NCBI GenBank assembly: GCA_902826515.1
Contig: CADEFD010000003.1
Span: forward strand, 968 to 64,967
Reading direction: 5' to 3'
DNA length: 64,000 nucleotides
From: an uncultured Acidobacteriota bacterium
GTDB lineage: Bacteria > Acidobacteriota > Vicinamibacteria > Vicinamibacterales > UBA2999
The notes beneath the pieces were generated by a model that was not told the origin of the DNA, made no database searches, and saw only the letters and a program-made list of their open reading frames with translations. Position 1 is the first letter of the stretch. The number at the start of each line of letters is the position of its first letter. Made by a program: the position numbers and the translations under genes. Positions 29,549-46,047 of the stretch are shown piece by piece.

Positions 29549-30693
29549 GGTGCCCGTTCACCAACGCGGAACTCGAGCGCCTGCTCGACCGGCCGGTGCG
29601 GCACCTGCTCGGCGCCGCGGATCGAAAGCGCTACTCGGGGCGGCGGCTGCTCATCACCGGCGCCGGCGGCTCGGTGGGCTCGGAACTCTCGCGCCAGCTC
29701 GCCGACTGCCGGCCCGAGGTGCTCACGCTCGTCGATCACTCCGAACTGCATCTCTTCGAGATCAGCAAGGAGCTGTCCGAACGTGTCCCCGGCCTGGCCA
29801 TCGAGCCGGTGCTCGCCGACATCTGCCAGGCGCCGCTCATGCGCCGCACGATCCTGCAGGCGTCGCCCGACGTGGTCTTCCACGCTGCCGCCTACAAACA
29901 TGTGTCGATGATGGAGCGCGATGTCTGCGCGGCCGTGGGCGCCAACGTCCTCGGCACGGCCAACGTGGTCGAGGCGAGCCGCGAGGCGGGCGCCCGCTTC
30001 GTGCTCATCTCGTCCGACAAGGCGGCCGCGCCGCGCAGCGTGATGGGGGCGACCAAGCGGCTGGCCGAACTCGTGGCGCTCGCCGCCACGCCCGGCGGCG
30101 CGCGGCCGATCGTGGTGCGTTTCGGCAACATCCTCGGCAGCAGCGGCAGTCTCCTCGCGATCTTCCGCGACCGCATCCGCCAGGGCCTGCCGCTCGCCCT
30201 GACCGACCCCTCGGCGACGCGCTACGTGATGACGGCCGGGGAAGCGGTGGCGCTCGTGATGAAGGCCGATCTGCTGGCCCGGCGTCCCGAGACCTACTGG
30301 CTCGACATGGGCGAGCCGATCGAGATCGGCGGCCTGACGGAGCGGCTGCTGGCGCTCGAGGCCGAGGCGGGATTCGCCCGCGTGCCGATTGAGATCGTGG
30401 GCCTCGGGCCCGGCGAGAAGCGGTGTGAGGAACTGACCACCCAGGGCCTGCGGATGTGCCCGACGGCGCACCGCCGCATCTGGGTGGCGCGCCAGAAGAC
30501 GAGCGACGGCGAGGCGGTCACGCGGGTGATCGCGCGGCTGCGGCGGATCGTGGAACAGGGCGACGCCGAGGCGGCGCTCGACCTGCTGGCCGGCGCGGTG
30601 CCCGATTTCGAAGCGAGCGATGAGGCGTGGGCGTGGGCCCGGCGCCGGAGCGCCCCGGTGGTCCGCCGCAGCGGACTGTCGCGGAGCGCATAA
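29545..30693 (+). CDS. pseB: CapD/Polysacc_synt_2-family UDP-GlcNAc 4,6-dehydratase (PseB/FlaA1-like)
   Basis: LLITGAGGSVGSELSRQL...FHAAAYKHVSMME...FVLISSDKAAAPRSVMGATKRLAE. ATGA overlap with the motB stop. Confidence 0.7.
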   Translation: MRCPFTNAELERLLDRPVRHLLGAADRKRYSGRRLLITGAGGSVGSELSRQLADCRPEVLTLVDHSELHLFEISKELSERVPGLAIEPVLADICQAPLMRRTILQASPDVVFHAAAYKHVSMMERDVCAAVGANVLGTANVVEASREAGARFVLISSDKAAAPRSVMGATKRLAELVALAATPGGARPIVVRFGNILGSSGSLLAIFRDRIRQGLPLALTDPSATRYVMTAGEAVALVMKADLLARRPETYWLDMGEPIEIGGLTERLLALEAEAGFARVPIEIVGLGPGEKRCEELTTQGLRMCPTAHRRIWVARQKTSDGEAVTRVIARLRRIVEQGDAEAALDLLAGAVPDFEASDEAWAWARRRSAPVVRRSGLSRSA

Positions 30694-31829: not shown

Positions 31830-31942
31830 GCACGCCGCGATGTCGGCGCGGCGACGGGCGCCGCGCGGCCAAGGGTCGGCGGACCGACATCCACAGGGTG
31901 CGAATTGCACAGGATTGTCGCCCGTGACCACCGCTACCTGAA

Positions 31943-31958
31943 CGGCACACTCGTTGCT
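31943..31958 (+). promoter_or_regulatory. Candidate sigma-54 promoter upstream of the pyruvyltransferase-MTase gene
   Basis: CGGCACACTCGTTGCT versus TGGCAC-N5-TTGCW, with exact spacing. It sits in a ~220-nt gap after the GT4 gene. Confidence 0.45.
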
Positions 31959-32051
31959 CAGTTGACGGGCATGGTTCTCCCAACCGTCCGTCACGAAGTT
32001 CCGCCGACCGGCGCCGACGCCGGACACCAGCGGCGCACCGGCCCGGCCACG

Positions 32052-33629
32052 ATGCCGCTGGCCGTCGGTCTCTTCAACGACAGCGGCGATGACGCGCAGG
32101 TCGTGAGCCTCGCCGTCTCGCAGGCCCACCGCCGCATGCTCCAGCGGGCCGGCGCCCACGTGCGCCACGCCTACTACCGCAGCGACTGGCAGGAACTCGG
32201 CACCGGCACCCTCGACGAGGCCGTCGCCGCCGCCCTGGCCTCGGCGGAACTGCGCCGCGTGTTCGCCGATGTCGATGTCATCGTCGTCGCCGGTGACACC
32301 TTCGCGAGCCGCGGCCACCGCCACCTCCTCGCGATCCTCGGCGCCGCCCAGCACCTCGACCTCCCGACCTACCTCGTGAATGCGACCATCGGGCCGCTCA
32401 CCGAAGGCCGCGAGATCCTGCAGGGCCTGGCCGACTGCACGGTGCGCGACCTGGCGACGAGCCGGGTGCTCAAGGCGCTCGGGATCGGCCATCGCCGTGT
32501 GCCCGACGCCGTCTTCGGCGCGCCCTTCGCGGCCACCGCCCGCCGCGACTTCTCCGATCACCTCGTCGTGACCGACTGCCACCCGTCGCGCCGTATCGAG
32601 TTCACGGCCGACCTGGCCGTCGTGCGCGGCGCCTGGCCGGGCATGGTGGCGGACTACCCGCTCGATGCGCCCGGCAGCACGCACGACTGGGCCTCCGCGG
32701 TGGCCGATCTCGGCACCGCCTCGGCCATCCTCACGGGCGGCCGCGACGGCGCGGCGCTGGCGCTGCGCGCCGGGGTGCCGTTTGTCGCACTCGGCCTGGC
32801 CGGCGAGGCCAACGACTTCATCGAGACGCTCGACGGCTATCCGGCGGCCGCGGCCGACCCGACGCGGTCGCTCGACGCCCGCCTGGCGTCGGCGATCGAC
32901 GCGCGGACCTGGTTTGTCGAGGCGGCGGCGCGCTGCCAGACGCGCGGTCCCGCCGATGCGTTCTCGCGGCTGCGCCCGAGCATGGCGCTCACCGGCCGCG
33001 ACGACACGTGGAGTGGCGCCATCGACGGCGCCGTGGACGTGGTGCGCGGGCTGACGCCCGCCGGCGGCAGTGTGCTGCACGCCGGCGCCGGCCAGGGGCA
33101 GCTCGTCGAAGCGCTGGCCCGCATCGGCCTGCGCTCGTGGGGCACCGATGTGGCCCGCCGGCTCGACCGGCCCGACCGCAATCGCTACTCGAAGGCAACG
33201 CCGATGGCGCTGCCGTTTGCCGACCACGTCTTCTCGACGGTGGTGGTGTCGGCCGACTGGCTCGAACATCTCGAAGCCGCCGACCTCGATGCCGCCGTCG
33301 CCGAACTGGCGCGCGTCGGCCGCGACACCCTTGTCGTCGAAGTCTCGGGCCGCCCGGTGCGCGCCGAACGCGCCTTCGCCGAGCGCCTGAGCGACGAGTG
33401 GTGGCGCCGCCGCCTCGGCACGCTGGGGCTCACGCCGCACGAAGCCTCCGATACGCTCGTCACGCACGGCGCCGGGCCCACCGGCGGCACGCTGCTCGTC
33501 ATGTCGGCGCACGCCCAGCTCTGCCCGAGCTGCCGGCGCGTGCATGCGCCGGTCGATCACGTGGAGCCGGTGCACGCCGGCGTGCTCATGGCCGCCGCCG
33601 AGGCGCGGGTCCTGTCGCTTCGCCGCTGA
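32052..33629 (+). CDS. Polysaccharide pyruvyl-transferase-like domain fused to a class I SAM methyltransferase
   Basis: N-terminal VDVIVVAGDTFASRG..AQHLDLPTYLVNATIGPL...CTVRDLATSRVLKALGI...VPDAVF (PS_pyruv_trans pattern). C-terminal GGSVLHAGAGQGQLVEAL...LPFADHVFSTVVVSADWLEHL (MTase motifs I-III). Starts at 31905 or 31971 are alternatives. Confidence 0.55.
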   Translation: MPLAVGLFNDSGDDAQVVSLAVSQAHRRMLQRAGAHVRHAYYRSDWQELGTGTLDEAVAAALASAELRRVFADVDVIVVAGDTFASRGHRHLLAILGAAQHLDLPTYLVNATIGPLTEGREILQGLADCTVRDLATSRVLKALGIGHRRVPDAVFGAPFAATARRDFSDHLVVTDCHPSRRIEFTADLAVVRGAWPGMVADYPLDAPGSTHDWASAVADLGTASAILTGGRDGAALALRAGVPFVALGLAGEANDFIETLDGYPAAAADPTRSLDARLASAIDARTWFVEAAARCQTRGPADAFSRLRPSMALTGRDDTWSGAIDGAVDVVRGLTPAGGSVLHAGAGQGQLVEALARIGLRSWGTDVARRLDRPDRNRYSKATPMALPFADHVFSTVVVSADWLEHLEAADLDAAVAELARVGRDTLVVEVSGRPVRAERAFAERLSDEWWRRRLGTLGLTPHEASDTLVTHGAGPTGGTLLVMSAHAQLCPSCRRVHAPVDHVEPVHAGVLMAAAEARVLSLRR

Positions 33630-33637
33630 GGTCCGCC

Positions 33638-35551
33638 ATGTCCACCCCCGACCAGCTCTTCGACCTGCCGCGCCTGCGGCCGCGCGTCGGCGCGGCGCGC
33701 GACTCGCTCCGCCTCCTGCATGTGATCGTCGGCCGCGACCTGCATCCGGGGCCGCTCGCCGACGAGATCCACGCCGCCAGCCGCGGCGCCATCCGCGTCG
33801 AGTGTGTGGCCGGGCTCGGCCGCGCCCTCGATCACCTGCGGGCGCATCCGGCCGCGCTCGTGCTGCTGCAGGCCGACGATCTCGACGTCGGCCGCGTGGC
33901 CCTCGCGGAGCTGAAACTCGCGCAGCCGGCCCTGCCGGTGGTGCTGCTGACCGAAGCCGAAGACGACGAGGCCGCCGTGGCCGCCGTGCGGGCCGGCGCC
34001 GAAGACTGCCTGTGGCGCGGGGCCGCCAGCGGCGCCCGCATCGTGCGCGTCATGCTCTGCGCCCTCGAGCGCACGAGTCACGCCGCCACGCTGCGCACGC
34101 AGGCCGTGACCGACCCGCTCACCGGCCTCCCGAACCGCCACGCCCTCCAGAAGGCCATCGACCACGCGATCGCGATGGCCCGCCGGAAGGGTCGTGCCCT
34201 CGCCGTGCTCTTCGTGGACCTCGACGGCTTCAAGGACGTCAACGACGCGTGCGGCCACGAGACCGGCGATCGCGTCCTCCAGGAGATCGCGCGCCGCTTT
34301 GCCGGCCGCACCCGCGACATGGACACCGTGGCCCGCATCGGCGGCGACGAGTTCGTCGTCGTGATGGAGGACCTCGACGACGGCCGCTTCGCCGCGACCC
34401 TCGCCGCCAAGCTGCTCGGCGCCGCCGCCGAACCGCTGGTCGTGCAGGGGCGCGCGACCGCACTCACGGCGAGCGTCGGCATCAGCGTGTTCCCGGGCGA
34501 CGGCGATGACGCCGCGGCACTCATCCGCCACGCCGACACCGCGATGTATGCGGCCAAGGCGGCGGGGAAGAACCAGTACCGCTACTACCGCGCCCGCATG
34601 AACGAACACTCGCGGGCCCGCACCGCGCTCGACGCGGCGCTCGAGCGTGCCTTCGAGCAGGAGGAATTCGACCTGCACTACCAGCCGGTCTGGCAGGCCT
34701 CGACGAAGCGGATCTCGTCGTGCGAAGCGCTGCTGCGCTGGCGCCGGCCCGGCCACGGCGTGCTGCTGCCGGCGGCGTTCCTCGACACCGCGGACGAGGC
34801 CGGCCTGGCCGGACGGCTCGCCCAGTGGGTGCTGACGCGGGCCGCCGCGACCGCGCGGCGGATGCGCGAGGCCGGCTTCGACGTGCCGGTCTCGGTGAAC
34901 CTGTCACGTCGTCAGCTCCTCGACGGCGACATCGCGGCGTGCGTGCAGCGTCTGTTCGCCGACGGGCTCGACGACGCCGCACTCCAGATCGAGATCGCCG
35001 AATCGGTACTCGTGTCGGACGAGCCGCGGCTCCAGCAGGTGCTCGCGGAACTGGCGGCACTCGGCCTCGGCCTGGTCGTGGACGACTTCGGCAGCGGCGT
35101 CTCGTCGCTGCGCGCGCTGCGACGCGTGCGCCCCGCCAGCATCAAGATCGACGGCGCGCTCGCCCGCGAACTGCCCGAAGGGCAGGATACGGCGGCCCTC
35201 GTGAGCGCGGTCGTGGCGCTCGGCCGCACGCTCGGGGTGCACGTGGTCGCCGAAGGTGTCGAAACGGAGGCGCAGTCGCGCCAGCTGCTCGCGCTCGGCT
35301 GCGACGACCTGCAGGGCTTCTACTACGGGCACGCGCTGCCCGACGGCGAATGGATCGGCTATCTGCGCTGGGCGTGCACGGCGGTCGTCGGCACCGATGG
35401 CCGCACCCCGGCCGTGCCCGTCCTGCCCGGCGCGCGCCGCCGCCGTGGCGGCGTGACCCGTTTTCCCGGGAGCGCGGGTCTGCCGGGGATTCCCGGCGCT
35501 CCGCGCGTGTCGAAAGCCGGGCACGTGGTGTTCGGCCGCTTCAGGAGTTGA
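33638..35551 (+). CDS. Degenerate-receiver / GGDEF / EAL protein
   Basis: GGDEF intact (RDMD-TVARI-GGDEF, with an RxxD I-site). EAL motifs present: EALLRW, NLS, EIAE, DDFGSG, KID, EGVE, QG. The N-terminal REC-like fold lacks the DD pair and Lys (HVIVGRD, LVLLQADD). Confidence 0.9.
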   Translation: MSTPDQLFDLPRLRPRVGAARDSLRLLHVIVGRDLHPGPLADEIHAASRGAIRVECVAGLGRALDHLRAHPAALVLLQADDLDVGRVALAELKLAQPALPVVLLTEAEDDEAAVAAVRAGAEDCLWRGAASGARIVRVMLCALERTSHAATLRTQAVTDPLTGLPNRHALQKAIDHAIAMARRKGRALAVLFVDLDGFKDVNDACGHETGDRVLQEIARRFAGRTRDMDTVARIGGDEFVVVMEDLDDGRFAATLAAKLLGAAAEPLVVQGRATALTASVGISVFPGDGDDAAALIRHADTAMYAAKAAGKNQYRYYRARMNEHSRARTALDAALERAFEQEEFDLHYQPVWQASTKRISSCEALLRWRRPGHGVLLPAAFLDTADEAGLAGRLAQWVLTRAAATARRMREAGFDVPVSVNLSRRQLLDGDIAACVQRLFADGLDDAALQIEIAESVLVSDEPRLQQVLAELAALGLGLVVDDFGSGVSSLRALRRVRPASIKIDGALARELPEGQDTAALVSAVVALGRTLGVHVVAEGVETEAQSRQLLALGCDDLQGFYYGHALPDGEWIGYLRWACTAVVGTDGRTPAVPVLPGARRRRGGVTRFPGSAGLPGIPGAPRVSKAGHVVFGRFRS

Positions 35552-35578: not shown

Positions 35579-36715
35579 ATGCGGATCCTGCATCTCACGA
35601 CGTTCCTCCAGGGCGGCGCCGGCCGCATCATCGCCGCGCTGGCCGTGGCGCAGCGTCGCTCGGGCCATGACGTGACCGTCGTCGCCGACGATGGCGGCGA
35701 GGACGGGTACGGGTCCTACCCGGAGTATCTGGCGGCCCTCGCGACGGCCGGCGTCGGCTACGCGACGGTGCGGTCGACCTTCAAGCGGGAGCTGCCCCTC
35801 GCGATGCAGGCGGCGCAGCAGCTGCGCGCGATCGCCGGTCCGTCTCCGCCCGACATCGTCCACACGCACGCATCCATCCCCACGCTCGTGGCGCGGGTCG
35901 CGTTCGGGCCGGCGCGGGTCCGGCTCGTCCAGACGATGCACGGGTGGGGTGTTCGTAAGACGCCCGACCAGGTGACCACCGACCTGTCCCTGCTGGCCGC
36001 GGCCGATGCGGTCGTGACGCCGTCGGACGCGGCGCGACGGTTCCTGCACGCCCTCGGTCTCGTCCATCCGGCCATGCATGTCATTCCCTACGGGCTGGAT
36101 CCCGCCGCGTCAACGGCGCCGGTCGATGCGGCCGACGTCGCGCGGCTGCGCCAGGTGCGCGCCGGCGGCGCCCGGGTGGCCGTGTGCCTCGGCACGATCG
36201 GCGCGCGCAAGAATCAGGCGCTCCTCGTGGCGGCGCTGACGTCGCTGCCGGAATTCGCGGCGGTCTTCATCGGCGATGGCGAGGGTGACGCACTCGAGGC
36301 GATGGCGGCGGCCCAGGGGGTCGGGGCGCGGGTGCACGTGCTGGGCTATCGCAGTGATGCCAGCCGCTACCTGCCGTACGCCGATGTGCTCGTGCTGCCG
36401 TCCCGCAACGAAGGTCTGCCCATCGCGGTGCTCGAGGCGCTGCGCGCCGGGGTGCCGGTGGTGGCGAGCGCAATTCCCGAGATTGCCGAAGCGATCGAGG
36501 ACGGGCGCACGGGCTATCTCTGCACGCCCGACGATCCCCTGGCGCTGGCCGCGGCGCTGCGCCGCAGTGTGGTGCCCGAGGTGCGCGCCTCCATGGCGGC
36601 CGCGGCGCGTGCGACCTTTGCCGCCCGCTACGAGCTGACGTCGATGACCCGGGCCTACGATCGTGTCTACCGCGGTGAGTTCGGCCCCGAGCAGGAGCGC
36701 GTCGCCGCGCGATAG
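35579..36715 (+). CDS. GT4-family glycosyltransferase
   Basis: MRILHLTTFLQGGAGRIIAALAVAQRRSGHDVTVV. LVLPSRNEGLPIAVLEALRAGVPVVASAIPEIAEAIEDGRTGYL. Confidence 0.85.
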   Translation: MRILHLTTFLQGGAGRIIAALAVAQRRSGHDVTVVADDGGEDGYGSYPEYLAALATAGVGYATVRSTFKRELPLAMQAAQQLRAIAGPSPPDIVHTHASIPTLVARVAFGPARVRLVQTMHGWGVRKTPDQVTTDLSLLAAADAVVTPSDAARRFLHALGLVHPAMHVIPYGLDPAASTAPVDAADVARLRQVRAGGARVAVCLGTIGARKNQALLVAALTSLPEFAAVFIGDGEGDALEAMAAAQGVGARVHVLGYRSDASRYLPYADVLVLPSRNEGLPIAVLEALRAGVPVVASAIPEIAEAIEDGRTGYLCTPDDPLALAAALRRSVVPEVRASMAAAARATFAARYELTSMTRAYDRVYRGEFGPEQERVAAR

Positions 36716-37539
36716 GCGGGCTCGTCGGCCAGGCACCACTCGAAGGGCGTGCCGCGCAGCGCGGCTTGCAGCTGCGCGAAGTTGGCGATCGTCTGGTCGA
36801 GCGGCAGCGACGACTGCCTGGTGAGCGTCGCCCGGTTGGTGAAGGTGTCGCCCACGCCGAACCACGCCGCGAGCTGCTGCAGCGCGCCCGGCGCCATGGC
36901 GCCCGAGCCGTCTGGAAAGAGATCCGTGTACTCCACTCGCAGAAAGCGGGCCCAGTCGAGAAACGCGCCCGCCACGCCGTTGTCCTCGAACGCCCAGTGC
37001 TCCATCGTGGCGAGCGCCTCGGCCGGCGGCACGGTCACCTGCAGGTCGGGCGGCGCCACGCCGTCACGCACGTAGTAGCGCCCGGTCGCGCGGCCCTTCA
37101 GCGTGGACAGCAGGCAGCGCAGATGGTTGTGGCGGGTGAGCTGGATGACGCCGAGGCCCCGGGCCTTGATGAGCTCGAACAGCGTCGGCGATCCGATCGA
37201 GCGCCAGACGCCGCCGATGTGGTGCGTGCTGTTGTACTTGACGTCCACGACGATGTGCCGCTTCGGCGTCAGGCCGCGCAGATACGTCAGGTAGTCGTCG
37301 AAGAGCTGGTCGTGACGGTCCGGGAACGCCCGGGTGACGTCGCCCGCGCAGTACGCTTCGAGGAACGTGAAGTAGTTGCTCGCGCGGACCCGGGGGTCGG
37401 ATGAACGCCGGTCCTCGAACTTGAACACCTCATCGAAACAGCAGATGTCGGGGTGGGTGTCGAGGACCGACCGCAGCGCGTTGGTGCCGCTGCGCTGGCG
37501 CGCCAGCAGCACGGTCACATCCGGAAAGGTCATCGCCAT
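36667..37539 (-). CDS. NodH/Stf0-like sulfotransferase-family protein
   Basis: VTVLLARQRSGTNALRSVLDTHPDI (5'-PSB-like loop) and GVIQLTRHNHLRCLLSTLKGRATGRY (3'-PB-like region). The pattern was recalled from NodH-type enzymes. Confidence 0.55.
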   Translation of the reverse strand: MAMTFPDVTVLLARQRSGTNALRSVLDTHPDICCFDEVFKFEDRRSSDPRVRASNYFTFLEAYCAGDVTRAFPDRHDQLFDDYLTYLRGLTPKRHIVVDVKYNSTHHIGGVWRSIGSPTLFELIKARGLGVIQLTRHNHLRCLLSTLKGRATGRYYVRDGVAPPDLQVTVPPAEALATMEHWAFEDNGVAGAFLDWARFLRVEYTDLFPDGSGAMAPGALQQLAAWFGVGDTFTNRATLTRQSSLPLDQTIANFAQLQAALRGTPFEWCLADEPAYRAATRSCSGPNSPR

Positions 37540-38316
37540 TTACCGGACCGCCGCGGCATCGATCTGCGCGTCGAGGGTGGCGTGCAGCGCGCTGAACGGC
37601 GCCGGCAGCGCGACGTGCCACCGGGTTGGCGCATGTTCCCATGGCCGGGCCAGCAGCGTCCGGGCCAGCGGCACGAGGGCGGTCAGGTCAGCGGGGAGAC
37701 GCACCGCGCCGATGTTCTGCTGCGGGCCGCCGGCCAGCTTTTCGAACGGCCACTCGTCGAACAGCCACTTGGCGCCCCACGCGGCATACTGCGGCGCCAG
37801 GCGCGGCAGGTCGATGTCGTGGAGGATGACCCACGACTGGCGTCGAGCCAGCACGCTCACGTGCAGCAGGTCGAGCAGCGGCCAGGGGTGATAGTGGTTG
37901 GCGTCGATGAACGTGAGGTCCACGCTCCCGGCGGGCAGCGCCTGCGAGAGCCGGCGGGCGTCGGTGTCGGTATCGAGTACCCACGTCGTGCACGGCTGCG
38001 GATACATCGTGCGCACGGCCTCGCCGGTGGCTCGCGCCGCGTCGAAATAGCAGGTCGGTGTGATATCGCACGAGCGAAGCCGCCGCGGCCGCGCACCGGC
38101 GGGCAGTGCGTCGAGGGCGTGCAGCAGGTACGCCGACGAGACCCCCGAGGCGACGCCGAGTTCGAGCATGTCCGCCGGTGCGTGGGCGGTCACCATCGCC
38201 TGCAGAAACTCAGCGTCGCCGGGCGGTATCGCACCGCGCACCCACGACGGCGCGGGCTGCACCTCGGGCCGCGGACGGCCGACGTCGTCGGCGCGGCAGG
38301 AGGCCGCGACGGTCAT
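37540..38316 (-). CDS. Class I SAM methyltransferase (Methyltransf_24/CmcI-like), stand-alone copy
   Basis: MLELGVASGVSSAYLLHAL (motif I) and VDLTFIDANHYHPWPLLDL. ATGA overlap with the upstream 1029-aa gene. The ORF-track N-terminus (to 39027) is an out-of-gene extension. Confidence 0.7.
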   Translation of the reverse strand: MTVAASCRADDVGRPRPEVQPAPSWVRGAIPPGDAEFLQAMVTAHAPADMLELGVASGVSSAYLLHALDALPAGARPRRLRSCDITPTCYFDAARATGEAVRTMYPQPCTTWVLDTDTDARRLSQALPAGSVDLTFIDANHYHPWPLLDLLHVSVLARRQSWVILHDIDLPRLAPQYAAWGAKWLFDEWPFEKLAGGPQQNIGAVRLPADLTALVPLARTLLARPWEHAPTRWHVALPAPFSALHATLDAQIDAAAVR

Positions 38317-39030
38317 GCCGTCACCAGCTCCGGCCGGGCGGTGAGCCGGGCGGAGAGCGCGTTGCGCACCGCCGCGAACGCCGCCGGCAGTTGCGTGTGT
38401 TCGATCGAAGGCGCCTGCTCCCACGGGCGCTCGAGCAGCGCCAGGGCGACCGGTATGAGGCGCGAGGGATCGGTGGGGAGCTGCACCGCGCCGATCGACG
38501 TCCAGCGGCCCACACCTTTCACCTTGTTGAACGGCCACGCCTGGAACAGCCAGCGCGGCCCGAACACCTGATGGTCCGGATGTTGTACCGGCAGGTCGAT
38601 GTCGTGCAGGATGACCCACGAGCCCGGCCTGGCGAACGCGGTGACGTGCAGCAGGTCGAGCAGCGGCCAGGGGTGTGAGTGATTGGCGTCGATGAAGGTG
38701 AGATCCGCGCCGCCCGGCGGGAGCGCTGCCGCGAGCGTACGGGCGTCGGCGGCGAAGGCCCGGTGCCACGCGGCCCGCGGCGCGGGATACATCTCGCGGC
38801 ACGCCTGTCCGGTCTCGTAAGCCTCGTTGAAGTAGCAGGTCGCGCGGACGTCGCACGAGTAGAGCGCGCGGGCCGGGCCGGCTGGCAACTGGTCGAGCGC
38901 ATACAGCAGGGCCGCTGACGAGGCCCCGGACGCCACGCCCAGTTCGACGACCGTCGAGGGCTGCAGCGCCGACACCATGTGCAGCAGGAACGCCGCGTCT
39001 TCGCCGCTGACGTACCCGGTGGCCCACGCC
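37540..39030 (-). repeat. Tandem duplication of a ~750-bp methyltransferase module
   Basis: The stand-alone MTase and the C-terminal domain of the 1029-aa protein align over ~235 aa. Shared blocks: ELGVASG.SSA.LL.ALD.LPAG, DLTFIDANH.HPWPLLDLLHV, SWVILHDIDLP, WLF..WPF, IGAVQLP/VRLP, LLERPWE/LLARPWE. DNA blocks such as GTGCAGCAGGTCGAGCAGCGGCCAGGGGTG also recur. Confidence 0.8.
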
Positions 39031-41402
39031 GGCGGCTGATACATGTCCTGCAGACCGGCGAGGTTCACGGGCACGGCACCGAAACGGTTCGTGAGGCGTG
39101 TGGCCGTGGACGGCTCAGGGCGGGGGGGAGGGTCCCGGTAGAGCAGCACGTGTTCGACTGGGACGTGCTGCAGGCGCGCGTACATCTCGTGCTCGAATTC
39201 CCGCGACGAGTAGACGACGACGTCTGCGAGGTCACGGCGGAACTCGTCGGGCGTCACACACGGCAGGCCGAGGAACGGCGCCGACGCCTGGCGGTCGATG
39301 AAGCCGCCGAGGAAGCGGCCGAGCTCCGGGCAGATCGCCAGCAGCCGGCGCGTATGTGTGCCGGTGCCATAGACGAAGACCCGAGGCTCGCTGACGTGCC
39401 AGCGTGTCACGAGCGCGTGCAGCCGCTGACGGACCGCCATGAGGTCGCGCACGTAGGGATCGCGGCCCGTGGGCGGCACCAGCCCGGCATACACGGCCAG
39501 CAGGTCATCGGGCATCGAAAAGAACTGCGCCAGCGTCGCCAGATCCGCCTGCGTCCCGGTCGACGAACCACCGGCGCGGGCCGACTTCAGCGTCCAGCCC
39601 AGGTCGAGCCCCGCGGGCCGTCGCGCATGGTACTGCCGGATCACTCCTTCGACGTCGGCATAGCCGCTTTCGAATGCGGCGGCCGGCACGGTGTAGAGCA
39701 CGGCGGGCACGACGGCCTGCGACAGGCCGCTGCAGGCGGTGGCCGCGTATGCCGGCCAGAAGGGCAGCGTGCCGTGGGTCGCCGCCGAGGCGATGGCGGC
39801 AAAGGCGCGTGGGTGGGCGGCAAAGCAGGGCCCGCCGAACGTGTTGTCACGCCAGCCGGTTTCGAGACTGGCGCCGAGCGGCGTCACACATTCGTCCGTC
39901 CCCGCCGGCGTCTCTCGCACGAAGTACGACGTCGCGATCGAGACGCCCGGCTGGGCGACGGCCGCCAAGAGACGCGCCAGCCCGCCGGGCTCCGGCTGCA
40001 CGCGCCCGTCGAGCACGATGGCCGGGGTGCTCGCGGCCGCGCCCGTCCAGTCCTCGAAGCGCAACCAGCGTCCCGCCTGCGCGGCGGCGTCGTGTCGCAC
40101 CACGCGGTCCCTGATCTCCTGGAGCCCGGCGTCGTCGCCGGCGTTCGTGACGACGACATCGAAGGCGGCGCCGGCCGCGATGCGCTGCGGCGCCGGCCGG
40201 GCCAGCAGGTCGCGCACGAAGTCGACGTGTGCCGAGTTGGCGGTCTGCACGTCGTAGCCGGACCGGTAGTCGATGGCGACGCGGCCCTCACGGCAGATGC
40301 GCCCGACGGTGGTGGCGAGCGCCAGGGCCGTCGGTTCGGCCAACAGGTGGCGGTTGGCCGCGCCGACGATCTCGGGGATGCCGCCGATGGCCGTCGACAC
40401 GAAGGGAATGCGGCGGGTGTAGAGCTCGATGACCGCGTATGGCAGGTTGTCGACCAGACTCGGGGCCACGACCAGCACGTGCGGCTGGGCCGCCAGCCAG
40501 GTCTGCGCTTCGAAGGAGCCGGCGTCGCCGATGATGGTCCAGGCGATCTCGGGAAGTGTCGCCATGTGAGCGGCGATGTAGGTGTCGCTCGGCTGGCCCT
40601 CGACGCTCGACGGCTTGCCGAGGAACGTCACGCGATCGATCTGCCCGCGCAGGGCGGGCGCGGCCAGCGCCTGGCAGAACAGGTGCAGGCCCTTGCGCGT
40701 CTCGAGCCGTCCGAAGAACACCAGGTGACGGAACGGCCCGGAATGTTCGATCGCGGTTGGCGCCTGCGCCAGCGTGGTGTCGAAACAGTACGGGATCACG
40801 GCACCCGGCTGCGCCAGCCGCCAGCGCGAGGCCGCCCAGTCAGCCATGTGCTGTGACGGAAAGATGGCGGCATCGGCCAGTCGGGCGGATTCCTTCTCGA
40901 GGAAGTCGACCGCCGCATCGGCCGGCGAGGCCGGCAGGCGTTTCATGCCCTCGTAGACCCATTGCCGCGACGAGTGCAGGGTCGTCGCCATGCGGACGCC
41001 GTCGAATGCCGCCGCCGCGTGGCGCGCCTGCAGTGCTCTGGCCCCGTGACCCAGGAACTCCTGGAAGAGCACGAGATCGAACCGGCGCGTCTGCAGCCAG
41101 GCCAGCACGGCGTCGGCCGTCTCGCTTTCGGTGCAGGCATAGCCGTCGCGCGGCGGGTGCACCACCGCGTGATCCTCGGCCCATCGCCCGAGGTCCACGT
41201 AGCGAAACGGCGCGGTGGCGGCAAAGTGTGTTTCCCAGTGGGCGGGTGTCTCGCGCTCGGTCCGTCCGGTATAGAGCACGGTGACGTCGTGCCCGGCGGT
41301 GCCCAGCGTGTGGGCCTCCCAATAGCAGGCGGTGCCGACGCCGCCGTTGGGAAACGGGCCGATGAACTCCGGCGAGACGATGCAGATGCGTGCGCGTGAC
41401 AT
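38313..41402 (-). CDS. 1029-aa multidomain enzyme: GT4 glycosyltransferase, unknown or GT-A-like middle, Rossmann-like segment, C-terminal Methyltransf_24-like domain
   Basis: N-terminal ARICIVSPEFIGPFPNGGVGTACYWEAHTLGTAGHDVTVLY plus VVAPSLVDNLPYAVIELYTRRIPFVSTAIGGIPEIV (GT4). C-terminal VVELGVASGASSAALLYAL...FIDANHSHPWPLLDL (MTase). Confidence 0.75.
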   Translation of the reverse strand: MSRARICIVSPEFIGPFPNGGVGTACYWEAHTLGTAGHDVTVLYTGRTERETPAHWETHFAATAPFRYVDLGRWAEDHAVVHPPRDGYACTESETADAVLAWLQTRRFDLVLFQEFLGHGARALQARHAAAAFDGVRMATTLHSSRQWVYEGMKRLPASPADAAVDFLEKESARLADAAIFPSQHMADWAASRWRLAQPGAVIPYCFDTTLAQAPTAIEHSGPFRHLVFFGRLETRKGLHLFCQALAAPALRGQIDRVTFLGKPSSVEGQPSDTYIAAHMATLPEIAWTIIGDAGSFEAQTWLAAQPHVLVVAPSLVDNLPYAVIELYTRRIPFVSTAIGGIPEIVGAANRHLLAEPTALALATTVGRICREGRVAIDYRSGYDVQTANSAHVDFVRDLLARPAPQRIAAGAAFDVVVTNAGDDAGLQEIRDRVVRHDAAAQAGRWLRFEDWTGAAASTPAIVLDGRVQPEPGGLARLLAAVAQPGVSIATSYFVRETPAGTDECVTPLGASLETGWRDNTFGGPCFAAHPRAFAAIASAATHGTLPFWPAYAATACSGLSQAVVPAVLYTVPAAAFESGYADVEGVIRQYHARRPAGLDLGWTLKSARAGGSSTGTQADLATLAQFFSMPDDLLAVYAGLVPPTGRDPYVRDLMAVRQRLHALVTRWHVSEPRVFVYGTGTHTRRLLAICPELGRFLGGFIDRQASAPFLGLPCVTPDEFRRDLADVVVYSSREFEHEMYARLQHVPVEHVLLYRDPPPRPEPSTATRLTNRFGAVPVNLAGLQDMYQPPAWATGYVSGEDAAFLLHMVSALQPSTVVELGVASGASSAALLYALDQLPAGPARALYSCDVRATCYFNEAYETGQACREMYPAPRAAWHRAFAADARTLAAALPPGGADLTFIDANHSHPWPLLDLLHVTAFARPGSWVILHDIDLPVQHPDHQVFGPRWLFQAWPFNKVKGVGRWTSIGAVQLPTDPSRLIPVALALLERPWEQAPSIEHTQLPAAFAAVRNALSARLTARPELVTA

Positions 41403-41408
41403 GGGGCC

Positions 41409-42275
41409 TCAGGCGCGTGCGGGCAGAGCCGGCGCGTATTTGAAGTAGTCGACCCATGCCGGGGCCGCGCTCACGGTGGCGTCGAAGATGGCCACCGCGT
41501 CGTCGACCTGCCCGAGCGACAGGCAGAGCGAGACGAGGTTGCACTGCTGGGCGGTCCATTCGCGGCCGCCGGGCTCGAATCGCTGCGCGCGCGCCGCCAG
41601 CGCGCGCAGCCGATCGGCGCCGAGATCGCGCAGGCGCGCCGGCAGTTCGCCGGGGGCCAGAGGCCGTTCCCACCGGTAGTAGGCCGTGGCCCACGGCATC
41701 GATCCCATGTAGGTGACGTGGTCGGCCAGCAGCTCCATCGTGATCGAGATCCAGGGCGTGTGCGGCCAGTGGTAGTCCTGCTGGATCACCGTGGAGACGC
41801 CCGGGATGAGGCGCGGGAAGAACTGCGCGACGAGGAAGTCGTTGGTCTCCCAGCTCTTGGCCACGTCGATGAAGAGGATCTCGATCGGCGTCGGCTCGGG
41901 CCATGGGAACGTGGCGATGTCGCCTTCGTGGACGGTCACGAACGAGGCGACGTCCGCGATCGTGCGGTCGTAGACGGGCCGCGTCGAGGCGCCTTCCGGC
42001 ACGCCATCGACGAACTGGCGCGCGAAGTGATCGGCCACGAAGATGTCGTAGGAATGGACGCGACCCGCGCGTTCGGCGACGCGCGGGTTGTCGCGCAGGC
42101 CGGTGGCCAGGGCCAGCGTCGACCCGCCCAGGAACGCGCCGCCGTCGATGATCTCGCCGCGGCCCGTGTACGAGTCGCGGGCGAGCGTGTAGAGCAGCTC
42201 GAGTTCCTGCGCGCTCAGCATCGTCCGCGCCTGGCGGACTTCGGGGGGGAGGAGTGTGGATTCGGCGGGTCTCAT
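41409..42275 (-). CDS. Methyltransferase-like (class I fold) hypothetical protein
   Basis: EIIDGGAFLGGSTLALATGL...IEILFIDVAKSWETNDFLV has the same overall layout as the Methyltransf_24-like genes downstream. Start taken at MRPAEST with a GGAG RBS. Confidence 0.4.
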   Translation of the reverse strand: MRPAESTLLPPEVRQARTMLSAQELELLYTLARDSYTGRGEIIDGGAFLGGSTLALATGLRDNPRVAERAGRVHSYDIFVADHFARQFVDGVPEGASTRPVYDRTIADVASFVTVHEGDIATFPWPEPTPIEILFIDVAKSWETNDFLVAQFFPRLIPGVSTVIQQDYHWPHTPWISITMELLADHVTYMGSMPWATAYYRWERPLAPGELPARLRDLGADRLRALAARAQRFEPGGREWTAQQCNLVSLCLSLGQVDDAVAIFDATVSAAPAWVDYFKYAPALPARA

Positions 42276-42313
42276 GGGCGCTCCGGGTGTGTGTGGATCT
42301 CGTCTGGAGCGAC

Positions 42314-42329
42314 AGCAACGGTTGTGCCA
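42314..42329 (-). promoter_or_regulatory. Candidate sigma-54 promoter for the MTase / GT-MTase / MTase / sulfotransferase operon
   Basis: Minus strand reads TGGCACAACCGTTGCT (15/16 to TGGCACG-N4-TTGCW). It lies ~40 nt upstream of ATG 42275, in the 163-nt gap after maf. Confidence 0.55.
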
Positions 42330-42438
42330 GCACTGCCGGATCGCCGACCCCGCAAGACGACGGTGTGAAACGTGCGGTGACGGCGGGCGCGGCATGTCGG
42401 CGTGCCGGCCGCGTCCGGAACACCGACACCAGGAGGTG

Positions 42439-44049
42439 TCAGGCCGGCTGGCCGGACGACAGCACCCGGCGGATCTCGTCCGCCGTCACGGCGCCGGCGG
42501 AGAAGTCCATCCACTGCGCCAGGGTCTCGCGGGCGCCGGGAGAGGTGGGCTGCGCGAGGAGCTCGCGACGCCGGGACGTAAGGCCGTCGTGGGGCCGCGC
42601 CTGCGCGCGGGCCGACCGCAGGATGTCGCGGACGTGGCCGCCGAGGGGCGCGTGCGGCCCGAGGACGTCGTGGAGCGTGGCGTGTTCGAGGTTCGCGCCG
42701 TGCAGGATGCCGGCGCCGGTGGTGTTCACGTACCGCCGTGAGCTGTCGGCACTGACCTGCTGGCACAGCCAGTCGCGAAAGGAGATGAGGTGCGGTGAGG
42801 TGAGGACCGGCCGGCCGTGCAGGTCCGGCACGCGCAGATCGGCGAGGCGTCCGAAGTAGTCGTCGACCAGCTGCTCCCACGTGCAGCCGTAGGTCGCCAT
42901 CGCCTCCCGCCACGTCGCGTCGTAGATGGTGTTGGCGCAGTACGGGCGTCGCACCGGATACGACAGGTCGAGGCCGGCGAACACGATCGGCGCGCAGCCG
43001 AGACGCACCGCAAGATCGAAGGCCGTCGTGACCACCGACCCCCACGCGCGCAGCGTGCCGCGGTCGAGCCCGGCGGCGCGCAGCCACGGCCAGGGCTCGT
43101 GGTCGCTGACCTTGAACACGAAGGTGCGGCCGGCGAAGCCGGTGAACGCCGAGGGGTGCAGGCTGCCTTCGGCGGCCAGGAAGATACCGTCCAGATCGTC
43201 GACGCCGGCGAGATGGCGCGCGTTCAGCTCGGCCGGATCGACACCGGCGACGAGGTGGGGCCGTACGCCACCGGCCAGCAGTGGCCGCAGCGTCGTGTCG
43301 GCGCCGATGACGACGGCACGATCCTGGAGCGCCGCCAGCGCCGGCAGCTGGTCGTCGAGCGAGGGTCCGGCACCGACGATGACCGCCGGGTGACCCGCCA
43401 GCAGCCCGTCCAGTGCGGCCGCATCCCCTTCGCGCGCGATGACCGGAAGATTGGCCAGCGTCTGCAGGAGGTACCGTCCAGCGAAGCGCCGGCGCGCGTC
43501 CGCATTCGCCCGGGCCTCGGCGACCAGGCGGCCGGCCACGGCCTCGGCGGCCTTCGCGTCCGCGGCGCGACAGGCGGCCAGGGCGCCGTTCACGATCAGG
43601 GTCGGCGGCGCGCTCACATCGACGAGGCGTCCGCAGTTCATCGCTCCGCCGTAGTCGGGACCCGTGAGCAGACACAGGCGGCCGTTCGTGATCCACGACG
43701 TCAGGTCGCGTCGCGCGAGCAGCAGCGCCGCGATGCCGGGGTCCGGTTCGAGCAGCACGAGGCGCGTGGACGCGCCCGATCGTTCGAGGTCGTCGATGAA
43801 CTCGCCGAGGGCCGGCCCGATGACGAAGAGCTGGCGGGGCCAGGTGGCGATGCGGGGGGCGTTGAGCGACTGCCACTCTCCCGTGGGGTGCCGCAGTTCC
43901 AGGCGCACCCCGTCCGCGCCATCTGCCACGGCCCGGGTGTGCGCCTCGTCGAGGCGTGCCAGCCCGGGGCGTTGTCCCTGCGCGCGTTCGAGCGCGGCAA
44001 GATTGGCGGCAAGGGTCGTCTCACTGAACACGCCAGATCCGGACTGCAC
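42439..44049 (-). CDS. maf: Maf-family (DUF115/MptE-like) motility accessory factor, putative flagellin nonulosonic-acid transferase
   Basis: AVIVGAGPSLDDQLPAL..AVVIGADTTLRPLL...GSVVTTAFDLAVRLGCAPIVFAGLDLSY is a typical DUF115 core. It is the C-terminal third of the artefactual 1523-aa ORF 42439-47010. The start is uncertain (GTG 44049 or 44031). Confidence 0.65.
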   Translation of the reverse strand: MQSGSGVFSETTLAANLAALERAQGQRPGLARLDEAHTRAVADGADGVRLELRHPTGEWQSLNAPRIATWPRQLFVIGPALGEFIDDLERSGASTRLVLLEPDPGIAALLLARRDLTSWITNGRLCLLTGPDYGGAMNCGRLVDVSAPPTLIVNGALAACRAADAKAAEAVAGRLVAEARANADARRRFAGRYLLQTLANLPVIAREGDAAALDGLLAGHPAVIVGAGPSLDDQLPALAALQDRAVVIGADTTLRPLLAGGVRPHLVAGVDPAELNARHLAGVDDLDGIFLAAEGSLHPSAFTGFAGRTFVFKVSDHEPWPWLRAAGLDRGTLRAWGSVVTTAFDLAVRLGCAPIVFAGLDLSYPVRRPYCANTIYDATWREAMATYGCTWEQLVDDYFGRLADLRVPDLHGRPVLTSPHLISFRDWLCQQVSADSSRRYVNTTGAGILHGANLEHATLHDVLGPHAPLGGHVRDILRSARAQARPHDGLTSRRRELLAQPTSPGARETLAQWMDFSAGAVTADEIRRVLSSGQPA

Positions 44050-44171
44050 GTTCCGTACCGGTGCGACGGCGCGGCGGACGCGTGGTGGCGACCCGACGTG
44101 GCACCGGCGCCGGCGTCGGCGCATCGACACCTGTGGACCCGCCCGGCCTGCAAAGTGCGGCGCGCCGGGGA

Positions 44172-44187
44172 GGGCACGGCATTTGCG
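44172..44187 (+). promoter_or_regulatory. Candidate sigma-54 promoter upstream of motA (set 2)
   Basis: GGGCACGGCATTTGCG. GGCACG-N4-TTGC matches the consensus core with exact spacing. It lies ~90 nt upstream of the ATG. Confidence 0.4.
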
Positions 44188-44207
44188 ACAGGCCCCGGGG
44201 AAGCGGG

Positions 44208-44234
44208 TCAAGGAATCCGGCAGCGCGCCGATTG
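44208..44234 (+). promoter_or_regulatory. Sigma-28-type promoter upstream of motA (set 2)
   Basis: TCAAGGAA-N11-GCCGATTG. The -10 is identical to the flgM and HK promoters. It lies 44 nt upstream of the ATG. Confidence 0.45.
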
Positions 44235-44277
44235 CCCCAATGGTTCCGGACCGTCGTCCTGGCCAACACAACACGAC

Positions 44278-45150
44278 ATGTTCGTCATTATCGGCACGCT
44301 CATCGTCATCGGCTCGGTGCTTGGCGGCTACGTCATGCACCACGGCAAGATCGCGCTGCTCAACCAGCCGAACGAGTTCCTCATCATCTTCGGCGCCGCC
44401 GTCGGCCAGCTCCTCATCGGCACGCCGCTGCCGACGGTGATGAAGCTGCTCAAGCAGATGGGCGAGGTGATGAAGCCCGGGCTGGCCAAGAGCGACTACG
44501 CGGACCTGCTGGCGATGCTCTACCAGCTCTTCCGCCTGTCGCAGCAGACCGGCATCATGGCGCTCGAAGGCCACTTCGAGAACCCGAAGGACAGCTCGAT
44601 TCTCTCGAGGTATCCGAAGTTCCTGTCGCGCCACGAGTCGCTCGACTTCCTCTCCGATTCCATCAAGGTGATCATCGTCGGCGGCATGGCGCCGCACGAC
44701 CTCGACGCGCTGATGGATGAAGACCTCTACGTCCATCACCACGAGGCGAAGGCGCCGGCCGGCGCGCTGGCCAAGACCGCCGACGCGTTCCCCGGCCTCG
44801 GCATCGTCGCCGCCGTGCTCGGCGTCGTCATCACGATGCAGTCGATCGACGGCCCGCCGTCGGAAATCGGCGAGAAGGTCGGCGCCGCGCTCGTCGGCAC
44901 GTTCCTCGGCATTCTGCTCTCCTACGGCATCTTCGGGCCGCTCGCGACCATCATCGAGACCCGCGTGGACGACGAGGGCAACTACGAGAAGTGCATCAAG
45001 GCGGGCGTGCTCGCGACCTTCAAGGGGCTGCCGCCGGCGATTGCCATCGAGTTCGCGCGGCGCGTGCTGCCGCATCAGGTGCGGCCGAGCTTCGAAGAGA
45101 CGGAAAAGTTCTGCAAGGCCGCGGGCAAGCCCGAAGCGGCAGCGGCCTAA
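44278..45150 (+). CDS. motA: MotA stator protein (set 2, enterobacterial MotA-like)
   Basis: MFVIIGTLIVIGSVLGGYVMHHG...AFPGLGIVAAVLGVVITMQSI...ALVGTFLGILLSYGIFGPLATII. Internal ATG of ORF 42817-45150. Confidence 0.93.
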   Translation: MFVIIGTLIVIGSVLGGYVMHHGKIALLNQPNEFLIIFGAAVGQLLIGTPLPTVMKLLKQMGEVMKPGLAKSDYADLLAMLYQLFRLSQQTGIMALEGHFENPKDSSILSRYPKFLSRHESLDFLSDSIKVIIVGGMAPHDLDALMDEDLYVHHHEAKAPAGALAKTADAFPGLGIVAAVLGVVITMQSIDGPPSEIGEKVGAALVGTFLGILLSYGIFGPLATIIETRVDDEGNYEKCIKAGVLATFKGLPPAIAIEFARRVLPHQVRPSFEETEKFCKAAGKPEAAAA

Positions 45151-45153
45151 GTC

Positions 45154-46047
45154 ATGAAACCCACGCAGCCGGTCATCATCATCAAGAAGAACCGCGGCGG
45201 CCACGGCGGCCACCACGGCGGCGCCTGGAAGGTGGCCTACGCCGACTTCGTGACCGCCATGATGGCGTTCTTCCTCGTCATGTGGCTCGTCGGCGCCAGT
45301 CCCGACGTGAAGAAGTCGGTGGCCGGGTACTTCCGCGACCCGGGCGTGTTCGACTTCGAGAAATCCACCGGCATGATGGCCGGCGGCATGACCGGCATCG
45401 ACGAAGGCCGCGCGCCCGAGACGGTGCAGCAGCCCGATGCCGCGGCGCTCACCGTCGAACGCCAGAAGCTCGAAGAGTCGGCCTCGCGCATCAAGGACAG
45501 CCTGGCCGACGCCGGCGGCCTCGAGGAACTGCGCGACCAGATCGAGTTCTCGGTGACCGAGGAAGGTCTGCGCATCGAACTGCTCGAGAAGGACGCCTCG
45601 AGTTTCTTCGGCAGCGGCAGCGCCGCGCTGCGCGGCGAGAGCGTGCGCATCCTCGGCATCATCGGCCGCGAGCTGGGCCAGATGACCAACGACATCGTCG
45701 TCGAAGGGCACACCGACAGCCGGCCCTTCGGTGCCGGCCAGACCTACTCCAACTGGGAACTCTCGGCCGATCGCGCCAATGCCGCCCGGCGGGTGATGGA
45801 GGCCGTCGGCCTCAATCCCGGCCAGGTGCAGGGGGTGCGAGGGTTCGCCGCCACGCAGCTCCGCCTCGCCGAGGCGCCGATGGACCCGCGCAACCGGCGC
45901 GTGTCGATCGTGGTGCGCAGCCAGTCGCGCGCCCGCCTGGAAGACTCGCTGCGTCGCGGCACGGCGCCGGCCGCCGCCCCGCCGCCGCCCGAAACCACCA
46001 CGCCATCCGGGGTGTCCCCGGCGACCGCGCCGCCGCCGGCGCATTAA
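45154..46047 (+). CDS. motB: MotB stator protein (set 2) with OmpA-like domain
   Basis: GGAWKVAYADFVTAMMAFFLVMWLV (conserved Asp). VEGHTDSRPF...SNWELSADRANAARR...NRRVSIVV. Confidence 0.93.
   Translation: MKPTQPVIIIKKNRGGHGGHHGGAWKVAYADFVTAMMAFFLVMWLVGASPDVKKSVAGYFRDPGVFDFEKSTGMMAGGMTGIDEGRAPETVQQPDAAALTVERQKLEESASRIKDSLADAGGLEELRDQIEFSVTEEGLRIELLEKDASSFFGSGSAALRGESVRILGIIGRELGQMTNDIVVEGHTDSRPFGAGQTYSNWELSADRANAARRVMEAVGLNPGQVQGVRGFAATQLRLAEAPMDPRNRRVSIVVRSQSRARLEDSLRRGTAPAAAPPPPETTTPSGVSPATAPPPAH

Follow-up and report, generated by a model that had tools for sequence, protein, structure and literature searches.

A predicted four-domain glycosyltransferase-methyltransferase and its anciently duplicated methyltransferase module in a candidate flagellin glycosylation operon of an uncultured Acidobacteriota bacterium

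A locus in an uncultured Acidobacteriota bacterium raises the question of why a single polypeptide should join glycosyltransferase-type domains to an O-methyltransferase domain, and why the next gene should encode that last domain again. The locus lies within a stretch of 64,000 nucleotides (contig CADEFD010000003.1 of assembly GCA_902826515.1; the window), in which an earlier reading of the sequence (the original prediction) had seen domain duplication and fusion still under way. The 1029-residue protein is predicted to comprise, in order, a GT4 glycosyltransferase, a catalytically degenerate GT-A domain derived from GT2, a Methyltransf_14/PglD_N-like Rossmann domain, and a class I O-methyltransferase (Methyltransf_24). 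A single, ancient tandem duplication that copied only the 3′ end of the large gene gave rise to the stand-alone methyltransferase gene, and the two have been stably co-inherited since. Both are part of a minus-strand operon of five genes, whose products are, in order, a motility accessory factor (Maf), a remote methyltransferase-fold protein, the 1029-residue protein, the stand-alone methyltransferase, and a sulfotransferase-like protein. We lean towards the view that this operon elaborates an O-linked flagellin glycan, with extension by the GT4 domain and double O-methylation by the fused and stand-alone enzymes.

Because the G+C content of the window is high (approximately 72%), it contains many long spurious open reading frames, and genes were assigned by third-position G+C content (GC3) together with homology. 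On this basis the large gene (38313..41402, minus strand, ATG start) and the next gene (37540..38316, minus strand) have the coordinates and frames that the original prediction gave them. The large protein has approximately 60 homologue clusters, with lengths of 1022–1097 residues and identities of 48–83%; since these are colinear with it from end to end, the reading frame is not a frameshift artefact, and the possibility raised earlier that re-sequencing might split it finds no support. In a species-representative set, the named relatives of the large protein are metagenome-assembled genomes of the Vicinamibacterales and other Acidobacteriota, at identities of 62% or less.

As originally proposed, the protein begins with a GT4 domain and ends with a Methyltransf_24 domain, both with Pfam matches above cut-off. 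The GT4 domain, of the GT-B fold, spans residues 1–395 (40218..41402, minus strand). Its N-terminal half matches Glyco_transf_4 over residues 20–210 (49.2 bits, cut-off 28.5), and its C-terminal half (residues 226–369) matches both Glyco_trans_1_4 (38.0 bits, cut-off 27) and Glycos_transf_1 (27.9 bits, cut-off 26.4). All 60 homologues share a Gly-rich loop (G20–G23), R232 and K237 (in GRLETRKG), and the acidic pair D318-x7-E326 without variation. These residues are compatible with an active GT-B enzyme, and the domain is probably active.

The middle of the protein gives a different picture. No GT2 family of Pfam matches the large protein at E ≤ 0.1, but the AlphaFold model of residues 395–790 (predicted local distance difference test, pLDDT, 88) contains a GT-A fold at approximately residues 413–605 (39588..40166, minus strand), for which Foldseek returns WrtF as the best PDB match (E = 9.5e-7), followed by GalNAc-T, SpsA, hyaluronan synthase, K4CP, and RmlT. 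The suspicion of a degenerate GT-A domain at FDVVVTNAGDD is thereby borne out at the level of the predicted fold. The nature of the degeneration is seen by comparison with proteins of approximately 835 residues (P0071–P0092) from Verrucomicrobiota, Opitutales, and others, which align with residues 1–755 at 31–38% identity and have the same domain order, including the small Rossmann-like domain, but which lack a methyltransferase and retain an intact GT2 domain with DDxS, DAD, and ED motifs (PF00535, 83 bits in P0071). Relative to these GT2-bearing proteins, the family of the large protein has lost the first β-α unit (approximately 35 residues) and the NxGxxARN loop; the nucleotide-binding DDxS motif reads NA, the DXD region FFDADNEA has become IVLDGRVQP, and the region of the catalytic base, EDWELF, has become PFWPAYAA. 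The losses are consistent across 48 family members, although a block PLGxSLExGWxxNxFGGPC is retained. The domain therefore appears to keep a GT-A fold while failing every catalytic-motif test.

A flexible linker and a long helix (residues 649–671), in a region rich in α-helix, lead from the degenerate domain to the small Rossmann-like domain (residues 669–756; 39135..39398, minus strand), which is modelled by AlphaFold as four β-α units with high pLDDT and in which G679, G681, H683, D703, S733, and E735 are invariant. Pfam profiles for Methyltransf_14 (PF08484) and PglD_N (PF17836) relate it to known domains: the segment from the window matches Methyltransf_14 alone and weakly (E = 0.11), whereas nine of ten homologous segments match PglD_N with E values between 5.7e-6 and 0.11, and one of the nine exceeds the cut-off (27.2 bits). 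Distant phmmer matches correspond to the Pfam Methyltransf_14 C-terminal domain of GT2 or methyltransferase proteins of approximately 400 residues, and the remote matches P0283, P0300, and P0303 overlap Methyltransf_14 domains that exceed the Pfam cut-off. The Rossmann segment noticed originally can thus be described as a Methyltransf_14/PglD_N-like mini-Rossmann domain. When 1.84 billion representative proteins were searched exhaustively, only 90 clusters containing it were recovered. Because it is equally conserved in the methyltransferase-less 835-residue relatives and in GT2-only proteins, it is best regarded as part of the glycosyltransferase core and not of the methyltransferase. One further match, P0250 (1613 residues), has 13 separate stretches matching residues 68–128 of the mini-Rossmann query but lacks any significant Pfam domain; this may reflect an array of repeats of the element or a low-complexity artefact.

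The C-terminal O-methyltransferase domain occupies residues 790–1029 (38316..39035, minus strand), and the ATG of the 258-residue stand-alone gene overlaps the TGA of the large gene as ATGA (38313–38316). BLASTP aligns residues 791–1022 of the large protein with residues 23–254 of the stand-alone protein (128 of 233 identical, 55%, two gaps, E = 5e-76), in keeping with the colinearity over approximately 235 residues that had been described; the conserved blocks quoted with it (ELGVASG.SSA.LL.ALD.LPAG, DLTFIDANH.HPWPLLDLLHV, SWVILHDIDLP, and LL.RPWE) are all present in the alignment, and both this alignment and the tree described below support a tandem-paralogue relationship between the stand-alone gene and the C-terminal domain. 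Pfam places Methyltransf_24 at residues 819–935 of the large protein (49.4 bits) and 51–168 of the stand-alone protein (44.2 bits), against a cut-off of 26.3. A profile of the methyltransferase family gives weak matches to solved cation-dependent O-methyltransferases in the PDB, and the AlphaFold model of the stand-alone protein (pLDDT 94, predicted template modelling score 0.91) matches Rv0187, SafC, COMT, and the oligomannoside O-methyltransferase MeT1 (PMC9883506) in Foldseek with E = 1e-9 to 1e-7 (lowest 2.6e-9). The fold is shared with cation-dependent class I O-methyltransferases (COMT, CCoAOMT, SafC, Rv0187, and MeT1; Methyltransf_3/24) at template modelling scores of 0.5–0.6, as are S-adenosylmethionine motif I, an acidic residue following strand 2, and the Asp in the FxDA block; sequence identity is, however, 12–23%, and the present proteins have an additional C-terminal helical extension of approximately 45 residues. 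Homologues of the stand-alone methyltransferase form approximately 80 clusters.

Conservation within the family does not single out either copy as defective. At 70 positions the same residue is at least 85% conserved across three groups, namely the stand-alone proteins and the fused domains of a near and a far clade. Paired between the stand-alone and fused copies, these include E52/E820, G54/G822, G58/G826, and S60/S828 of motif I, D84/D851 after strand 2, and D138/D905, H141/H908, H143/H910, H166/H933, and D167/D934; D138/D905 aligns with the first metal ligand of cation-dependent O-methyltransferases. Fixed differences between the stand-alone and near-clade fused groups number only three, and at one of them (201/969) the stand-alone proteins have the far-clade state. 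Because every conserved motif is retained in each, both copies are probably active.

How old is the duplication? Across aligned codons the two copies are 65% identical in nucleotide sequence and 57% identical at third positions; identity at four-fold sites is 0.60, compared with 0.43 expected from composition, and 87 codons are identical, compared with 72 expected from codon usage. Synonymous sites are nearly saturated. The runs of DNA identity that had been pointed out near 37861 and 38645 are real: a 32-nucleotide exact match (37859–37890 and 38644–38675) encodes the invariant HPWPLLDLLH motif, and further in-register runs of 18, 14, 14, and 13 nucleotides occur at the same offset, whereas the longest run in codon-shuffled controls averaged 11 nucleotides with a maximum of 17. 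The same motif region in three other genomes carries runs of 15–20 nucleotides between copies. Gene conversion was considered as a source of the 32-nucleotide run and is not needed, given an invariant motif, a GC3 of approximately 90%, and copies that are no closer within genomes than between them.

Neighbour joining places the stand-alone copies in a single clade (79% bootstrap) and the near-clade fused domains in another (100%); the stand-alone clade includes the second methyltransferase domain of a re-fused relative (P0003, described below) and lies apart from the C-terminal domains of the neighbouring large proteins. Far-clade genomes have neither a stand-alone copy nor the 288-residue protein gene of the operon. 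Among 15 genomes with both genes on one contig, the distance matrices of fused and stand-alone copies are correlated (r = 0.83, Mantel p = 2e-4), and the distance between the copies of one genome is 0.44–0.54 in all 15. The copies have thus diverged in parallel while the distance between them within each genome stayed constant, and nothing indicates concerted evolution. Synonymous divergence, separate clades, and co-divergence together indicate that the duplication is old, and the suggestion that it is ongoing has to be given up.

Shuffling of these domains by duplication and fusion is nonetheless evident at the level of the family, where re-fused, methyltransferase-less, and permuted versions occur, and it is only as a current process in this genome that the proposal fails. 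In P0003 (1273 residues; L001, 3034–6855) the large protein and the stand-alone methyltransferase are fused in frame through a TATPTAAVAAPPP linker; two Methyltransf_24 stretches are separated by this Pro/Ala/Thr linker, and the contig is present in two samples. The in-frame fusion, together with the ATGA overlap in the window, speaks for a functional linkage of the two methyltransferases. P0065–P0068 are relatives of the large protein without the methyltransferase, and in P0075 and P0078 the methyltransferase is at the N terminus. The P0078 gene lies in a NeuB/ATP-grasp/HAD/CMP-transferase cluster (CMP, cytidine monophosphate) and adjoins a sulfotransferase-like gene; at L085 a larger Sulfotransfer_3-like gene precedes a permuted homologue. 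A 565-residue protein from a 118-kb contig in ENA (P0093) joins residues 115–279 of the 288-residue operon protein to residues 4–356 of the large protein, and may reflect a true fusion or else a broken gene prediction. Two contigs with the Acidobacteria-type operon, L007 (CAZZGM010000048.1) and L011 (CALQBJ020000094.1), come from metagenome-assembled genomes labelled Bifidobacteriaceae and Bifidobacterium breve, and are probably mis-binned.

The operon is headed by the gene for Maf (MptE-like; 42439..44031, minus strand), which matches PF01973 with 113 bits (cut-off 34.6) and is 68% identical over 532 residues to the Maf of the syntenic locus L002 (tblastn), its frame being supported by a GC frame plot. 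Maf is the predicted transferase of nonulosonic acid onto flagellin. The gene is hidden in a plain list of open reading frames, within an open frame of 1523 codons; another frame (42272..43876, 534 residues) has the length of a real Maf but matches poorly, and was rejected as spurious from tblastn and the GC frame plot. The same gene order is found in L002 (GCA_031419095.1), and all five genes recur in L086, the nearest relative for which context is available. With the exception of L007, every full-length homologue locus that includes upstream DNA has Maf as the gene immediately upstream, in the same orientation; at L084, in the far clade, Maf and the large gene form an isolated pair surrounded by unrelated genes, and many GT4 relatives in Acidobacteria at 39–40% identity are likewise preceded by Maf.

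Between Maf and the large gene lies the gene for the 288-residue protein (41409..42275, minus strand; start codon set by ortholog alignment), which has a motif I (DGGAFLGGST) and a FIDVAKSW block. The original prediction took it for a third related module. A remote relationship is supported by hhalign (E = 0.013, 22% identity, colinear motifs) and by a Methyltransf_24 match of 25.6 bits, just under the cut-off of 26.3, and the protein is probably another of class I methyltransferase fold; it is not, however, a copy of the same module, as BLASTP detects no similarity to the large protein. In L001, L002, L005, L007, L008, and L086 the corresponding place is taken by orthologues with 67–84% identity, and the gene is confined to the near clade. 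The last gene of the operon (36667..37539, minus strand) starts one base past the stop codon of the stand-alone methyltransferase and encodes a 290-residue sulfotransferase-like protein, with a Sulfotransfer_3 match (24.5 bits) below the cut-off of 27 and motifs of the type that binds 3′-phosphoadenosine-5′-phosphosulfate (RQRSGTNAL and TRHNHLRCLLS). Orthologues have the corresponding place in L005–L007, where they directly follow the large gene, and a 280-residue gene has it in L086. The sulfotransferase-like genes of the window, L005–L007, and L085 hint at a sulfated flagellin glycan.

Around the operon are genes for flagellin, FliD, a PseC-like protein (DegT), HAD, NeuB, ATP-grasp, and CMP-transferase (CTP_transf_3) proteins, and a PseB-like protein (Polysacc_synt_2), as well as two further GT4 genes, a REC-GGDEF-EAL gene, and MotA/MotB. 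Maf, nonulosonic-acid synthesis genes, and flagellin thus occur in one locus of the window, a glycosylation island that contains the operon, and the flagellin and pseudaminic-acid context implied by the assays originally suggested is upheld, with Maf at the head of the operon itself.

The pathway we favor would run as follows. Maf would attach a nonulosonic acid of the pseudaminic or legionaminic (Pse/Leg) type, supplied by the neighbouring PseB/PseC/NeuB/CMP-transferase genes, to Ser/Thr residues of flagellin, as suggested by knowledge of its family, and the GT4 domain of the large protein would add the next sugar to the Maf-installed glycan. The GT2-derived domain, having lost its donor-side motifs, would no longer bind or use a nucleotide-sugar, and with the mini-Rossmann domain would probably hold the acceptor or act as a scaffold. 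Of the two O-methyltransferases, fused and stand-alone, each would methylate a different hydroxyl on the added sugar(s), perhaps as a hetero-oligomer, and sulfation may follow.

Several observations weigh against this account or parts of it. None of the large, stand-alone, 288-residue, and sulfotransferase-like proteins is covered by a model in the curated NCBIfam library, and PDB searches found no solved structure close to any part of the large protein. In the GT4 domain the first acidic position of the EX7E motif is an invariant Asp (D318) instead of Glu. In both methyltransferases the second metal site reads His-Asp (H166-D167/H933-D934), and the invariant His residues of NHxHPWP and LHD replace the Asp-Asn pair of class I O-methyltransferases, so that the motifs read FIDANHxHP and LHD compared with the canonical D/D/N. 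The placement of the stand-alone clade as sister to the near clade, relative to the far clade, has only 36% bootstrap support. L005–L007 lack the stand-alone copy while retaining the sulfotransferase-like gene, and the copy is therefore dispensable in some lineages. Finally, relatives of the mini-Rossmann domain accompany nucleotide-sugar enzymes, which leaves room for methylation before transfer.

This last point leads to a first alternative, which we consider unlikely: a CMP-nonulosonic acid or nucleoside diphosphate-hexose, held by the mini-Rossmann domain, would be methylated first, and Maf or the GT4 domain would transfer the product. Synthesis of modified Pse/Leg derivatives commonly takes place on the nucleotide-sugar; in natural-product pathways, sugar O-methylation usually comes after glycosyl transfer. 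The mini-Rossmann domain immediately precedes the methyltransferase domain and has remote homology to the C-terminal domains of sugar C-methyltransferase-type proteins and to PglD_N, both partners of nucleotide-sugar enzymes, but its equal conservation in proteins without a methyltransferase does not fit such a role. The fold, moreover, is that of a cation-dependent O-methyltransferase, whose structural neighbour MeT1 methylates oligosaccharides (PMC9883506).

The stand-alone copy might instead be an obligate partner subunit of the fused domain, the two forming a heterodimer that mimics the catechol-type homodimer and has a single catalytic site. Class I cation-dependent O-methyltransferases are typically dimers, and translational coupling through the ATGA overlap, strict co-inheritance, the in-frame fusion in P0003, and the very few fixed differences would all suit such an arrangement. 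Each copy, however, keeps every motif residue, and neither resembles a pseudo-enzyme; the far-clade genomes and L005–L007, furthermore, have the fused domain alone. We therefore hold a single-site heterodimer to be distinctly unlikely.

It is also improbable, in our judgment, that the operon tailors another glycoconjugate, such as an exopolysaccharide, lipopolysaccharide, or capsule, and lies among flagellar genes incidentally. The named NCBIfam relatives of the GT4 domain, TuaC and EpsE, are polysaccharide enzymes, both matching weakly and far below cut-off; a pyruvyl-transferase-like gene and the further GT4 genes lie nearby, and no Maf was found adjoining the distant GT4-GT2-Rossmann proteins in L014–L018. 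Against these stand the presence of Maf as the immediate upstream neighbour at almost every full-length homologue locus, including loci that lie outside flagellar regions, its place ahead of many 39–40% identical GT4 relatives in Acidobacteria, and the finding of no Wzx/Wzy, ABC-transporter, or polyprenyl-phosphate initiating transferase among the genes scanned from 18.8 to 48.8 kb. A recent or still active duplication or fusion, possibly with gene conversion, is very improbable, as a 32-nucleotide run longer than its counterparts in three other genomes and a slight excess of identical codons count for little against the third-position divergence, the separate clades, the even within-genome distances, and the invariance of the GC3-rich motif that the run encodes.

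A bolder extension of the flagellin glycan pathway is a self-contained “extend-and-cap” device for cytoplasmic protein O-glycosylation, in which the dead GT-A and mini-Rossmann domains would hold the glycan or flagellin, the GT4 domain would add a sugar, and a methyltransferase heterodimer would install a length-fixing di-O-methyl cap before sulfation. We regard this as unlikely; if true, it would amount to chain-length control by a methyl cap without a lipid carrier or ABC-transporter checkpoint, and would give Acidobacteriota their first described chemistry of a flagellin glycan.

Known systems offer partial precedents, here compared by description. WsaE, from the S-layer glycan system of Geobacillus stearothermophilus, is a trifunctional methyl-rhamnosyltransferase with a methyltransferase and two glycosyltransferase domains, and its O-methyltransferase domain methylates the sugar just added (PMC2943079). 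Like the present locus, it combines glycosyltransferase modules and an O-methyltransferase in one polypeptide encoded among overlapping genes (PMC2943079), and its methyltransferase-first order is shared by the permuted P0075 and P0078. In contrast to the predicted GT4 and dead GT-A pair, however, both glycosyltransferase domains of WsaE are active; it belongs to a lipid-linked rhamnan pathway with ABC-transporter export and chain-capping methylation, unlike the cytoplasmic Maf-dependent flagellin context proposed here, and has no counterpart of the extra paralogous methyltransferase. In O-antigen systems (WbdD, Klebsiella O7 ORF6, and WbbB), glycosyltransferase and methyltransferase modules are variably split or combined (PMC11231755), much as fused, split, permuted, and methyltransferase-less versions occur in the present family. 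Those systems have a coiled-coil ruler and a kinase or Kdo terminator, whereas Pfam found no kinase domain in the large protein, and the methyltransferase here is of the Methyltransf_24, catechol-O-methyltransferase-like type.

On the polar flagellin of Aeromonas, Maf installs a Pse-type sugar, which Fgi-1 and other island glycosyltransferases extend to a heteroglycan with methyl and phosphate groups (PMC7874193). The window resembles that island in having Maf, nonulosonic-acid genes, additional glycosyltransferases, methyltransferases, and a sulfotransferase-like gene. Fgi-1, however, is a single-domain GT-A protein of 327 residues with an intact DxD motif, in place of which the present locus has a predicted assembly of GT4, degenerate GT-A, mini-Rossmann, and O-methyltransferase domains; the phylum also differs. 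A full-text search of a literature collection found no paper on flagellin glycosylation in Acidobacteria. If the proposed role is correct, Maf, the large enzyme, its twin O-methyltransferase, and the sulfotransferase-like protein make up a concrete and testable set of genes by which Acidobacteriota, which are abundant in soil, would glycosylate flagellin. The family also forms a natural series, from active GT4-GT2-Rossmann proteins through GT2 decay, acquisition of a methyltransferase at either end, and partial 3′ duplication yielding the stand-alone methyltransferase to re-fusion in one lineage; such a series of domain accretion and decay may be useful for understanding how pseudo-enzyme domains and paralogous tailoring enzymes persist. 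No established concept is overturned, since multi-module glycosyltransferase/methyltransferase enzymes and Maf-linked heteroglycans are already known, and the locus fits their logic.

Other genes of the neighbourhood merit brief description. The nonulosonic-acid set (22164–30690, plus strand) includes an ATP-grasp protein (PylC-like/carbamoyl-phosphate-synthase-like) and a HAD hydrolase beside NeuB, a CMP-transferase, and the PseB/PseC homologues. The ATP-grasp/HAD/NeuB trio also accompanies distant homologues in L010, L028, L044, L057, and L085, and suggests a modified Pse/Leg derivative. A lone MotB-like/OmpA gene (28859–29545, plus strand) lies inside this sugar-synthesis cluster. Further along, a 574-residue fusion (31905–33626, plus strand) joins a sub-threshold polysaccharide pyruvyl-transferase-like region to Methyltransf_11, with 62% identity in L002; it is followed by the REC-GGDEF-EAL gene for cyclic diguanylate turnover (33638–35551, plus strand), which lies between this fusion and a GT4 gene and is syntenic in L002. 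On the other side, a MotA/MotB pair (44287–46044, plus strand) is divergent from the Maf operon; the 777-residue “MotA” open reading frame found there (42817–45150, plus strand) is over-extended, an artefact of high G+C content, and MotA proper begins at approximately 44287.

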